A stretch of 64,000 nt of DNA, from NCBI RefSeq assembly GCF_054482595.1, contig NZ_CM137008.1. One strand, written 5' to 3'. Under the pieces are notes generated by a model. The model was given only the letters and a program-made list of their open reading frames with translations, did no database searches and had not been told where the DNA came from. Below are positions 47,896-53,616 of the stretch, piece by piece (the stretch's first letter is position 1; every line of letters begins with the position of its first letter). A program made the translations under genes and the position numbers.

Positions 47896-48567
47896 ATGAA
47901 GATTTTACTTATTGAAGATAATCAAAGGACCCAGGAGTGGGTAACGCAGGGGCTTTCCGAAGCGGGTTATGTCATTGATGCCGTTTCTGATGGCAGAGAT
48001 GGGCTCTATCTTGCGCTTAAGGATGATTATGCATTGATCATTCTGGATATTATGCTTCCGGGTATGGATGGCTGGCAGATCTTACAAACGTTAAGAACAG
48101 CAAAGCAAACTCCTGTTATTTGCCTTACTGCAAGAGATTCTGTCGATGACAGAGTCAGAGGGCTGGACAGTGGGGCAAATGATTATCTGGTAAAACCTTT
48201 TTCATTTTCTGAGTTGCTGGCAAGGGTTCGGGCACAATTAAGGCAACATCACGCTTTGAATTCAACATTAGAAATCAGTGGCTTAAGAATGGACTCTGTT
48301 AGTCAAAGTGTGAGCAGGGACAATATCAGTATTACACTGACGCGCAAGGAGTTTCAGTTACTTTGGCTACTGGCCTCCAGAGCTGGCGAGATTATCCCCA
48401 GAACGGTTATTGCGAGTGAAATTTGGGGAATCAACTTTGATAGTGATACCAATACGGTGGACGTCGCCATTCGCAGGCTCCGCGCAAAAGTTGATGATCC
48501 TTTTCCTGAAAAGCTAATCGCCACAATCCGGGGGATGGGCTATTCATTCGTAACGGTAAAAAAATAA
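47896..48567 (+). CDS. hprR: Two-component response regulator HprR (YedW)
   Basis: 223 aa from MKILLIEDN...; receiver plus winged-helix output domain. Confidence 0.8.
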   Translation: MKILLIEDNQRTQEWVTQGLSEAGYVIDAVSDGRDGLYLALKDDYALIILDIMLPGMDGWQILQTLRTAKQTPVICLTARDSVDDRVRGLDSGANDYLVKPFSFSELLARVRAQLRQHHALNSTLEISGLRMDSVSQSVSRDNISITLTRKEFQLLWLLASRAGEIIPRTVIASEIWGINFDSDTNTVDVAIRRLRAKVDDPFPEKLIATIRGMGYSFVTVKK

Positions 48568-49925
48568 TGAAAAGATTATCTATAACCGTCCGTTTAACCT
48601 TGCTTTTTATATTGCTGCTGTCTGTTGCTGGCGTTGGAATTGTATGGACTCTCTATAATGGCTTGGCAAGTGAGTTGAAATGGCGCGATGATACAACACT
48701 CATTAACCGGACAGCGCAGATCAAGCAGTTGTTAATTGATGGGGTAAATCCAGATACGTTACCTGTGTACTTTAACCGGATGATGGATGTTAGTCAGGAT
48801 ATCTTGATCATTCATGGTGATAGCATCAACAAAATTGTTAACCGGACGAATGTCAGTGATGACATGTTAAATAACATACCTGCTACTGAGACAATCAGCG
48901 CAGCTGGCATTTACAGAAGCATTATTAATGATACAGAGATAGATGCTTTACGAATTAATATTGATGAAGTTTCGCCATCATTAACGGTTACTGTGGCTAA
49001 ATTGGCTTCAGCCAGACATAACATGCTTGAACAGTATAAAATTAATAGCATTATAATTTGCATTGTCGCCATTGTACTTTGCTCAGTATTAAGTCCGCTG
49101 TTAATCAGAACGGGATTACGAGAGATCAAAAAGTTGAGTGGTGTAACGGAAGCGCTGAATTATAACGATAGCCGGGAGCCTGTTGAGGTTAGCGCATTAC
49201 CGAGAGAACTAAAACCTCTTGGGCAGGCGTTGAATAAAATGCATCATGCTTTAGTCAAAGATTTTGAGCGTCTAAGTCAGTTTGCTGACGATCTCGCTCA
49301 TGAACTTAGAACGCCCATTAATGCATTACTGGGTCAGAATCAGGTTACGCTCAGTCAAACCAGAAGTATCGCTGAATATAAAAAAACAATTGCCGGTAAC
49401 ATTGAAGAGCTGGAAAATATTTCGCGGTTAACAGAGAACATACTGTTTCTTGCCCGGGCAGATAAAAACAATGTTTTGGTGAAACTGGACTCACTTTTTC
49501 TCAATAAGGAAGTCGAAAATTTGTTGGATTATCTTGAATACCTTTCAGACGAGAAAGAGATTTGCTTTAAGGTCGAGTGCAATCAGCAAATCTTTGCGGA
49601 TAAAATTTTACTGCAACGAATGTTATCGAATCTTATTGTTAATGCCATTAGATATTCACCAGAAAAATCGCGCATTCATATAACCAGTTTTCTTGATACC
49701 AACGGCTATCTTAATATTGATATCGCCAGTCCTGGAACGAAAATTAATGAGCCTGAAAAACTCTTCCGTAGATTTTGGCGGGGAGATAATTCGCGTCATT
49801 CCGAAGGTCAGGGACTTGGTCTTTCTTTAGTCAAAGCGATTGCCGAATTGCATGGGGGAAGTGCTACGTATCACTATTTTAATAAGCATAATGTGTTCCG
49901 AATTACGTTACCGCAAAGAAATTAA
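48567..49925 (+). CDS. hprS: Sensor histidine kinase HprS (YedV)
   Basis: 452 aa; two TM segments; H-box LAHELRTPIN. Confidence 0.8.
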   Translation: MKRLSITVRLTLLFILLLSVAGVGIVWTLYNGLASELKWRDDTTLINRTAQIKQLLIDGVNPDTLPVYFNRMMDVSQDILIIHGDSINKIVNRTNVSDDMLNNIPATETISAAGIYRSIINDTEIDALRINIDEVSPSLTVTVAKLASARHNMLEQYKINSIIICIVAIVLCSVLSPLLIRTGLREIKKLSGVTEALNYNDSREPVEVSALPRELKPLGQALNKMHHALVKDFERLSQFADDLAHELRTPINALLGQNQVTLSQTRSIAEYKKTIAGNIEELENISRLTENILFLARADKNNVLVKLDSLFLNKEVENLLDYLEYLSDEKEICFKVECNQQIFADKILLQRMLSNLIVNAIRYSPEKSRIHITSFLDTNGYLNIDIASPGTKINEPEKLFRRFWRGDNSRHSEGQGLGLSLVKAIAELHGGSATYHYFNKHNVFRITLPQRN

Positions 49926-50032: not shown

Positions 50033-50884
50033 TTAACCCGCATAAGCTGCCAGCATTTCCTGCGCCGCCAGTTTACCCAACGCAATCGCTGCGAAAGGAC
50101 TGTCGCCGGTGAGAACTTTACGGTCCTTATGTACTCGCCCGGTGATGTCGTCATTAATAATGTTCATGCCCATTTTCTTCAGCTCTTCGCCGAAGTACCA
50201 GGTGAGATGACCCGGCATATAGCCTATCTCTGGCGTTTGTTTGTCTGCGGCGTCTGGGAATGCGCAAATGGAATAACCATTCAGTGGGTTATCGCCGTGG
50301 CGAAGCGCCAGAAAAGCCGCCGGGCCGTGGCAAAGGGAGATAACAAAACGGTCATTTTTGATTGCCCACTGTAAAGCGGCAGCTACGTCCTGGCTTTCTG
50401 GTAAACCAATAAGTGCGCCATGACCACCAGGAACAAAGATTGCTGCATATTCGCTATCAGCGTTGAGGCTGGCAACAACATCCGCGAGTTTCTTCGGATT
50501 GCGGAACAACGATTTATGCTGCTCAAAGAATGGCATTACTTTTTCATCTTTGTGCGGCATAGCCCAGTATTCAAACTTGGTCATCAGACCGGAAATGGTC
50601 GCCACTTCGAATTCGAAACCTGCAGCATGGAGATGATACAACGGCAGCAACGTTTCAATCGGATGGTTACCGGTCGAGAACAGTTTTCCGTTATCGGTCG
50701 GCAAATAACGTTCGTCCGCGGCGATCACCAGAATTTTATGTTTACCGCGATAAGGTTTTGGATAGTCCACGCCATCAAGATCAGAGACAGGACTGGTATA
50801 TTGGCTAAGCGAATATTCTGAAGGGAAGAATGCATTATCTTCAGCAATATCGACCTGCGGATTTTTACTTGTTTGAACAGTCAT
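50033..50884 (-). CDS. hchA: Hsp31 glyoxalase/chaperone HchA
   Basis: 283 aa MTVQTSKNPQVDIAEDNAFFPSEYSLSQYTSP...; DJ-1/PfpI-like with catalytic Cys in ISLCHGP. Confidence 0.85.
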   Translation of the reverse strand: MTVQTSKNPQVDIAEDNAFFPSEYSLSQYTSPVSDLDGVDYPKPYRGKHKILVIAADERYLPTDNGKLFSTGNHPIETLLPLYHLHAAGFEFEVATISGLMTKFEYWAMPHKDEKVMPFFEQHKSLFRNPKKLADVVASLNADSEYAAIFVPGGHGALIGLPESQDVAAALQWAIKNDRFVISLCHGPAAFLALRHGDNPLNGYSICAFPDAADKQTPEIGYMPGHLTWYFGEELKKMGMNIINDDITGRVHKDRKVLTGDSPFAAIALGKLAAQEMLAAYAG

Positions 50885-51475
50885 AGTGTATTCCTTATTG
50901 TTGCTTAGTTAGGGTAGTCACTATATTTGCGACTGAGCTGGTCGCTATTTTTAACCAGGCTGGAAAATTGAGTCAATATATCGAAAGCGGTAGTCGGCGG
51001 GTGTAAGTATGTAATGATGATGCTGCACTGGTGTTGAATATTATTCACGCCAAATTTTCCTTATTGAGTAACGTCGTCGCAAGTGGCCTCAATGATTTTA
51101 GACCATTATCAGAGGTACGGGGTGGCTGGGAGAGATTTAGTGCTGTGGAATATTGTGGTGCTGATGAATATTTATATCGCGGATTGGTAGAGAAAAATCT
51201 TATTTCATGCACTATTTTTGCAAATATTTCTATATGGGAAGCGTGTTTGTTATGGATTAATTCATAAAGAAATGCATTTGGGTGTTGGCTTGAAGAGTCG
51301 CTGGTTGATGTTGTTGTGCCAGGAGGGGCAGGGTAAGGTGCTGTATCGATATGCTTCGGCAATTGCGTGTGCCGCAGATGGAGATGAAATGTCAATAAAA
51401 AAGCCTGAGTTCGATGAGGGACGAACTCAGGCTAGTGTTCAGTTTTACAGTAACACGCCGCGGCGCGTTGGCTGA

Positions 51476-52663
51476 TTAGAACTGGTAGACTAAGCCCACA
51501 GCCACGATATCATCGGTAGCGATGCCGTTTTCTTTGTAGAAGTCGTCGTCGTTGTCCAGCAGGTTGATTTTGTAATCAACATAAGTGGACATGTTTTTGT
51601 TGAAGTAGTAGGTCATACCAATATCAACATATTTAACCAGATCTTTGTTGGTGTAATGATGATTACCCTGGCTGTCGAAGTTATCACTATTTACACCGCC
51701 TAAATCCTTACCTTTAGATTGCAGGTAAGCGATGGACGGGCGCAGGCCAAAGTCGAACTGATACTGAGCAACAACTTCAAAGTTTTGGGTTTTGTTAGCG
51801 ATGGCATCAGCATCACCGTAACCAGTCATGTTACGGGTTTCAGCATACATAGCTGCTAAGTAAACGTTATTAGCGTCATATTTAGCACCAACGGTCCATG
51901 CTTCTGCTGTTTCACCGCCAGCAGTTGCATCGAAGCGATCTCCATAACGAATGTTATGCAAACCTTTGTGAACCTGATTGTCAGTACGGTCAGAATTAGA
52001 ATATGCAGCACCCAGACTTAAACCGAAGTCGAAGTCATAGGAAGTGGACATACCGAAGCCGTCGCCGTTCTCTTTAGCTAACTTACGGCCATTACCGTTA
52101 CCAGAACCTTCCTGACCGAATAATCCATCATCTTCATTATTACCCTGATATTGCAAAGCAAAGTTCAAGCCATCGACCTGACCAAAGAAGCCATTGTTAC
52201 GGTAGGTTGCAACACCATTAGCACGACCGTTCATGAAGTTGTCAGCGCCAGCATAGGTATCGCCACCAAATTCTGGCAGCATATCGGTCCATGCTTCTAC
52301 GTCATATACGACACCGTAGTTACGACCATAGTCGAAAGTACCATTCTGACCAAAGCCTAAACCTGCAAATGCCAGACGCGTTGCGGTATTACCCTTGTCG
52401 CTTTCAGGACCGTTTGCGCCAATGTTAAATTCCCACTGACCATAACCAGTGAATTGATCAGCGATCTGAGTTTCACCTTTGAAACCGATACGGGCATATG
52501 ACATGTCGCCATCGCTGCCAGAATCATCAGAGAAGTAGTGCAGACCCACTACTTTTCCGTACAAATCCAGTTTATTACCATCTTTATTATAGACTTCAGC
52601 CGCATTTGCTGCGCCAGCAACTAATAATGCCGGGACCAGCATTGCCAGAACTTTTCTTTTCAT
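51476..52663 (-). CDS. yedS: OmpC/OmpF-family general porin, apparently intact
   Basis: 395 aa from [21 protein letters not shown]; porin-like, C-terminal ...VGLVYQF. Confidence 0.75.
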
Positions 52664-53292
52664 TATGTATTCCCTTGTGATTATAATCTTCATGAATATA
52701 TCAATAAGTGCCGTTATCCAAAAAAAAGCACATTTGGATACTATTCTATGAAGTTCATTTTATTTTAAAGATTACATGTAACAAATGTATTTAAAAGATT
52801 TCAAAATGTTTCTAATCTATTTAATATAATTTAGAATTATGAATTCTAAATATAAATATTCATGAAAATTATAAATGTATATCAATATGTTATGAGTTGA
52901 GCGGAAGCATAGGGGGTATCAATGATTGTTGCGCCAAACGGCTGGTGTGATCACGCGCACATTAATGAAGGCATAAAAAAAAGCCGGCATCATGCCGGCC
53001 CAAAAAATATAAACAAGACGATAAAAGGCTAATAACGGAGGCATCATGACACAGAAAAATAAAAAGGTATAATTGTATTCAGTGCTAATATATTGATTAA
53101 ATGAATTAATAAAGCCGATCTCAAAGATAAATAAAATCGCTCAAAACGATTTTTCCTGTATTCACTGCCGTTGCGCAAAAATTATCTATTTGTTCAAAAA
53201 ATGAGTGAGTCTTGACTGGCTCATCCAATGTGGAAAAATGTGACTTTTATCACATAATAGTACTAAGTCTGAATTTTCCGGGTTATCTCAAA

Positions 53293-53616
53293 ATGGAATA
53301 CGGTTCGACAAAGATGGAAGAGAGACTCTCTCGCAGCCCTGGTGGCAAACTGGCTTTGTGGGCTTTCTATACATGGTGTGGCTATTTCGTCTGGGCAATG
53401 GCGCGTTACATCTGGGCAATGGCGCGTTACATCTGGGTGATGAGCCGGATCCCCGATGCCCCCGTGTCGGGATTTGAAAGCGATTTAGGCTCTACCGCGG
53501 GAAAGTGGTTAGGGGCACTGGTCGGATTTTTATTTATGGCTCTGGTCGGGGCATTGTTAGGCAGCATTGCCTGGTACACCCGACCTCGTCCCGCACGTAG
53601 CAGACGCTATGAATAA
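53293..53616 (+). CDS. yedR: Inner membrane protein YedR-like; start uncertain; contains 21-bp tandem duplication
   Basis: ORF 53212..53616; tctgggcaatggcgcgttaca repeated at 53390-53431 (WAMARYI x2). Confidence 0.5.
   Translation: MEYGSTKMEERLSRSPGGKLALWAFYTWCGYFVWAMARYIWAMARYIWVMSRIPDAPVSGFESDLGSTAGKWLGALVGFLFMALVGALLGSIAWYTRPRPARSRRYE

Follow-up and report, generated by a model that had tools for sequence, protein, structure and literature searches.

OmpC, OmpF and PhoE belong to one Pfam porin family and have in common a 16-strand architecture, a PEFGGD motif in loop L3, a ladder of basic residues and a C-terminal YQF. OmpK37 and OmpN are OmpC-like porins described as "quiescent," a term also applied to OmpS1 of Salmonella enterica, whose repression by H-NS/StpA is relieved by LeuO and whose expression depends on OmpR. 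The yedS gene of Escherichia coli encodes a porin with all the features that OmpC, OmpF and PhoE share. In MG1655 it is annotated as a pseudogene (b4496, formerly b1964-b1966; NC_000913, 2034051-2035243), and the copy in DH5alpha is annotated "frameshifted; internal stop." A study by Warner et al. (2013, Antimicrob Agents Chemother 57:1935) is reported to have linked MarR and YedS to carbapenem resistance in a clinical E. coli isolate, and its abstract reportedly describes the gene as "a normally nonfunctional porin gene in E. coli." Passages of two later papers attribute to Warner et al. 2013 a mode of carbapenem resistance in which an active yedS porin gene is combined with a marR mutation (PMC4048246, PMC11267920). 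The existence of an intact yedS is therefore already known, the K-12 pseudogene standing in the reference annotation and a functional yedS having been published in 2013. Here, we describe a yedS allele with an uninterrupted frame, compare it with the K-12 copy and with the alleles of other E. coli genomes, and consider what its conservation implies for expression.

The yedS frame and its surroundings

The window is a 64,000-nt stretch of contig NZ_CM137008.1 (assembly GCF_054482595.1), and the porin ORF lies on its minus strand (Table 1). Genes around it follow the order hprS, hchA, yedS, rseX, drpB, yedJ and dcm, which is the order around b4496 in MG1655. The gene of the Hfq-binding small RNA RseX sits directly upstream of yedS on the same strand, matches the position of b4603 of K-12 and is not part of the porin. 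Both this position, from hchA to rseX/drpB as for b4496, and 89.4% nucleotide identity with the K-12 gene over its full length bear out the name yedS that an earlier note on this DNA had given to the ORF. We consider it very probable that the porin ORF is an intact, wild-type yedS allele between hchA and rseX/drpB. In K-12, micF adjoins ompC and micC adjoins ompN; rseX beside yedS parallels this arrangement, in which a porin gene neighbors one for an sRNA that regulates porins.

ORF analysis and translation found no internal stop over the 395 codons. The earlier note had described a continuous ORF of about 395 codons at 51476-52663, and the frame is indeed uninterrupted over exactly this interval, on the minus strand, which the note had omitted. 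The longest mechanical ORF opens 10 codons further 5′, at 52693; the MKRKVLAM start adopted here is the one that RefSeq uses in EC-JS426 (WP_047656155.1), a complete genome whose 1188-nt yedS is annotated intact and is 100% identical to the window copy. The Shine–Dalgarno-like AAGGGAA is invariant in the window, K-12, CFT073 and O157:H7. All sampled yedS alleles share one signal peptide sequence, which nearly matches that of OmpC. The first residue of the mature OmpC and OmpK36 chains in solved structures aligns with query residue 22, so cleavage is placed after ANA, and the mature N-terminus that results fits the family pattern AE(V/I)YNKDGNK. The protein ends in VGLVYQF, and its last three residues (Y393, Q394 and F395) are invariant in 11 aligned porins and in 14 yedS alleles. 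Thus, the signal peptide and the typical C-terminal Phe of a porin, both read from the sequence in the earlier note, hold up. The intrinsic terminator starts 43 nt past the stop codon and has the T-rich tail TTTTTATTGA.

Table 1. Coordinates of yedS, its sequence elements and neighboring genes in the window.
Feature	Position	Strand	Details
hprS	48567-49925	plus	neighbor gene
hchA	50033-50884	minus	neighbor gene
yedS intrinsic terminator	51402-51433	minus	terminator scan; 12-bp stem (7 GC pairs), 8-nt loop
yedS CDS	51476-52663	minus	ATG at 52663, TAA ends at 51476; 1188 nt, 395 codons plus stop
yedS product, predicted general-diffusion porin precursor	51476-52663	minus	Pfam Porin_1, full length
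Signal peptide	52601-52663	minus	21 codons; cleavage ANA/AEV, mature start AEVYNK
Shine–Dalgarno-like AAGGGAA	52670-52676	minus	read from sequence; 6 nt 5′ of ATG
AT-rich 5′ regulatory spacer	52664-52975	minus	rseX terminator to yedS ATG; 19.5% GC over 52700-52899
rseX sRNA gene	52976-53065	minus	Rfam RF01401; 96.7 bits versus gathering 50; full model length

The earlier note had suggested that yedS is disrupted in K-12 and had proposed an alignment with the K-12 gene as a check. That suggestion is correct: in addition to the pseudogene annotation, the nucleotide alignment with the window locates two lesions in K-12, namely, a CAG to TAG change at nt 484 (codon 162) and the loss of 1 nt at approximately nt 663, after which the remainder reads in a different frame to ...VYQF. 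The window ORF shows neither lesion: codon 162 is CAG, and the frame continues unbroken through nt 663. The note had also allowed for an inactivating change that it might have missed; none was found in the window gene when the start, Shine–Dalgarno sequence, signal peptide, L3, β-signal, terminator and upstream region were checked.

Apart from these lesions, the two copies differ in a patterned way. Only 2 differences fall within the first ~530 nt, and beyond that point the alignment becomes a mosaic, in which identical blocks alternate with strongly diverged ones and three indels occur (9, 24 and 9 nt); the flanks of the gene are 97 to 100% identical. When the K-12 gene is repaired in silico, its product is 88% identical to the window protein, with 40 substitutions and three indels. 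The slot, promoter region, signal peptide and first 177 residues are common to the two proteins, all 40 substitutions lying past residue 177. With the strand boundaries of an AlphaFold2 model, 36 of the 40 lie outside predicted β-strands, mostly at external-loop positions.

The 7.2 kb around yedS are 99.85% identical to EC-JS426. Over the 24 kb from 40001 to 64000, which according to the annotations of matching genomes include a prophage tail-fiber gene and dgcQ, no complete E. coli genome in the collection reached 99% identity at full length, the best being 97 to 98%. Upstream of rseX, drpB (yedR), the gene of the cell-division protein DrpB, carries a perfect 21-nt tandem duplication of 2.3 copies at 53390-53437 (plus strand), which adds 7 in-frame residues relative to K-12 (WAMARYIWAMARYIWVM versus WAMARYIWVM). 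The duplication is also present in EC-JS426, whose alignment with the window is gapless. Between hchA and yedS lies a spacer of ~590 nt, where the GC skew of the plus strand is strong over 51000-51400 (+0.37 to +0.47); a 116-aa ORF in this spacer, at 51045-51395 on the minus strand, is called "hypothetical protein" in some RefSeq genomes, for example, ETEC4075. K-12 has no annotation in this spacer, and an Rfam scan of it found nothing.

Porin features of the encoded protein

The YedS protein matches Pfam Porin_1 (PF00267) with E = 1.1e-142, residues 27 to 395 aligning to positions 1 to 337 of the 337-position profile. Its score of 542.7 bits passes the NCBIfam OmpC-subfamily cutoff of 484, and it remains below the cutoffs of the OmpF (451 versus 583 bits) and PhoE (444 versus 599 bits) equivalogs. 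The best match among solved structures is Klebsiella pneumoniae OmpK37 (PDB 6v78; E = 2.6e-145, full length), followed by Omp36, OmpK36 and OmpC, and all of these align through the final Phe. YedS differs from OmpK37 in its locus and in its longer loops L4, L5 and L7. Relative to K-12 proteins, the window YedS is 73% identical to OmpN, 66% to OmpC and 62% to OmpF; it is thus closer to one of the quiescent porins than to either OmpC or OmpF, from which it also differs in chromosomal locus.

The residues that line the pore occupy invariant or nearly invariant columns in an alignment with OmpC, OmpF and OmpN. The basic ladder is conserved as K37, R58, R96 and R147 in precursor numbering (K16, R42, R82 and R132 in OmpF), and the L3 constriction with its PEFGGD motif retains the acidic residues D127, E131 and D135, likewise in precursor numbering. 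An AlphaFold2 model built from an 11-sequence alignment shows 16 long strands at moderate confidence (pLDDT 62.7), and we used it for strand and loop boundaries only. A 16-strand barrel is also backed by the gap-tolerant, end-to-end alignment to solved 16-strand porins.

Every testable sequence feature agrees with a Sec-exported, BAM-assembled, trimeric general-diffusion porin, and this is the function that we infer for YedS. Judging from family membership, Sec would export the precursor, cleavage would follow ANA, BAM would insert the protein in response to its C-terminal YQF signal, and the mature protein would fold as a 16-stranded β-barrel and trimerize. Small hydrophilic solutes, including β-lactams, would then be expected to diffuse through a pore narrowed by L3.

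Intact and inactivated alleles across E. coli

We searched 5426 complete genomes with 55-nt queries centered on each K-12 lesion, so that the lesion falls within nearly all of the 28-nt seed words. The allele with TAG was present in 360 of the 5426 genomes and, among the matches listed, all were K-12 laboratory derivatives. The CAG context at codon 162 was found in at least 794 genomes, a lower bound since divergent alleles lack the seed word. The K-12 frameshift context occurred exactly in 371 genomes, and 136 further genomes have the K-12 allele type with the missing base present; one of these, O177:H21, has yedS annotated as intact at 397 aa. Both lesions are confined to the laboratory lineage of K-12, which accounts for about 360 to 371 of the 5426 genomes.

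As a second sample, we took genomes at regular intervals along the similarity ranking and examined their drpB-hchA locus. This yielded 18 informative loci, including those of 16 non-K-12 genomes; two more sampled matches (H29 and H37) are true ompC genes and uninformative on yedS. The porin in the yedS slot is annotated as intact in 15 of the 16 non-K-12 genomes, at lengths of 352 to 404 aa, and the complete frames end in YQF. The sole exception is O157:H7, which has a frameshift of its own, a 1-nt deletion at nt 606. In strain 3384 of this serotype (L004:1201-2387), the broken copy is a window-type allele with 95% nucleotide identity, inactivated independently of the K-12 copy; a frameshift is annotated in the adjacent drpB as well. 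A protein identical to that of the window is encoded on 198 public contigs, and the cluster that contains it at 90% identity numbers 1201 members.

These results show that an intact yedS is the common wild-type state in natural E. coli. The premise implicit in the earlier note, that an intact copy is unusual, is not borne out, and the population data suggest that the reported wording "normally nonfunctional" reflects a K-12-centered view. Since K-12 and O157:H7 lost the gene independently, it is dispensable.

Two ways in which an intact yedS could be only apparent deserve consideration. Single-base homopolymer indels are common assembly errors, and the O157:H7 allele differs from the window type by one deleted base, so an artefact of sequencing or assembly could in principle mask a real frameshift in the window; with the identical 395-aa protein on 198 independent contigs and the identical 1188-nt gene in the EC-JS426 complete genome, we regard this as hardly credible. 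Equally improbable is that the gene is the true OmpC of the strain rather than yedS, as its automated label would imply. RefSeq/PGAP names the gene at the yedS locus "ompC: porin OmpC" where the allele is OmpC-like, as in the genomes listed with such alleles, and simply "porin" where it is shorter, and the passing score against the OmpC subfamily agrees with that name. However, the true ompC sits between rcsD/micF and apbE (ftp in K-12) in K-12 and two other genomes, whereas the window gene sits between hchA and rseX/drpB; its product is 66% identical to K-12 OmpC versus 88% to the repaired K-12 YedS; and genomes hold a median of 3 matching places, so that a separate ompC is present. The label "porin OmpC" is thus misleading, many E. 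coli genomes seeming to carry two ompC genes, and this duplicate naming is a trap for automated calls of porin loss and resistance. An intact yedS at its own locus remains the reading that we adopt.

Expression, selection and allelic diversity

The region of ~310 nt upstream of yedS is on average 97% identical among the window, K-12, CFT073 and O157:H7, with the last ~90 nt identical, even though the coding alleles of strains with this conserved upstream region differ by up to 40% at the protein level. Promoter-like hexamers are present at 52850-52823 and 52784-52757, but a promoter scan of the region gave 7 sites versus 6.7 expected in shuffled sequences, no excess, and we assigned no promoter. 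In K-12, in vitro mapping placed a CRP site immediately downstream of rseX, at 2033766 (PMC12871828), and the window keeps this site with one spacer base changed. rseX itself is reported to be silenced by H-NS/StpA in K-12 (PMC8313858). This silencing, together with the 19.5% GC of the upstream region, implies that yedS may be silent in culture.

Small RNAs that regulate other porins gave no pairing signal with yedS. In a crude test, in which RNAduplex energies for the initiation region (−60 to +30) were compared with those of 200 dinucleotide shuffles, MicF, RseX and MicC gave z values of +0.73, −0.08 and −1.13, respectively, whereas the positive controls behaved as expected (micF-ompF, z = −2.0; micC-ompC, z = −2.6). 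Control of yedS by MicF is therefore unsupported by this test.

Other observations point to conditional or low expression. Of 141 healthy people, one had serum antibodies to YedS (PMC11242715), a rarity that fits either low expression in vivo or a mismatch between alleles and the antigen used. One paper equates yedS with the gene of the quiescent Salmonella porin OmpS1, listing it as "(ompS1)"; there, yedS was 2.5-fold down on σE induction together with ompC, ompF, ompN and phoE (PMC2731931). The AT-rich upstream region of yedS also fits the H-NS/LeuO regulatory logic of ompS1 (PMC4264507). We take a possible kinship with OmpS1 as a lead and claim no membership. Because the upstream region has 19.5% GC and the closest relatives of YedS are quiescent porins, expression of yedS is probably low or conditional, as for those porins. 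H-NS silencing at the AT-rich upstream region would be the likely mechanism, and YedS would then matter mainly on loss of OmpC or OmpF or under particular host conditions. The suggestion of the earlier note that this strain may express an additional general porin is reasonable.

We estimated dN/dS by the Nei–Gojobori method for the window allele against 13 other intact yedS alleles. Over the whole gene, the ratio was 0.08 to 0.26. Outside the external loops, it was 0.04 to 0.08 for nine OmpC-type alleles and 0.20 to 0.23 for the four shortest alleles, and in the external loops, where computable, it was 0.18 to 0.47. These values are far below the 1 expected of a decaying relic and thus indicate that purifying selection acts on yedS in nature, implying expression in some setting.

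The same data weigh against the possibility that the intact ORF is a permanently silent, functionally irrelevant and decaying relic, so that the strain never makes an extra porin. Several of the facts above would suit such a relic: two successful lineages, K-12 and O157:H7, have inactivated the gene independently, its upstream region is extremely AT-rich and adjoins a gene silenced by H-NS/StpA (PMC8313858), and antibodies to its product are rare in people (PMC11242715). Yet a neutral relic would show ratios near 1 rather than those found over the whole gene and, for the closer alleles, in the barrel; its frame would not be expected to remain complete, down to the terminal YQF, in 15 of the 16 non-K-12 genomes sampled, nor its 5′ region to stay conserved where the coding alleles have diverged; and a clinical isolate is reported to have a functional YedS, according to a passage citing Warner et al. 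2013 (PMC4048246). Accordingly, we judge a dead relic to be unlikely, though less remote than the two artefactual readings considered above, and favor a conserved porin gene with probably low or conditional expression.

Complete porin alleles of 352, 357, 371, 387 and 393 to 404 aa occupy the yedS slot, with amino acid identities down to 60%, which is approximately the distance of YedS from OmpF; there are at least five length classes in what is a small sample. Between the window and other strains, the flanks are 90 to 100% identical at the nucleotide level. For the alleles of CFT073, W60, ATCC BAA-2469 and JML285, identity to the window drops to 35 to 78% inside the coding sequence, starting just past the signal peptide, and is back above 90% immediately past the stop codon. 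The promoter, rseX and the signal peptide thus form the conserved flank of the slot on one side, and everything from the stop codon onward forms it on the other. In this small sample, yedS is a hypervariable locus with a cassette-like pattern, which resembles other surface-antigen loci and is the only mildly novel thread in the comparison. A tentative interpretation, to which we give somewhat less than an even chance, is that phages, colicins or host immunity have exerted long-term diversifying or balancing selection on a conditional porin in this cassette-like slot.

That the gene is intact in this strain has little discovery value in itself, an intact yedS being ordinary in natural isolates and K-12 being the exception. 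In a strain that loses OmpC or OmpF, the product of an intact yedS could still let β-lactams enter. If the interpretation by long-term selection is true, the yedS allele that a strain carries could be among the overlooked factors that determine phage host range and, in strains losing OmpC or OmpF, β-lactam permeability.
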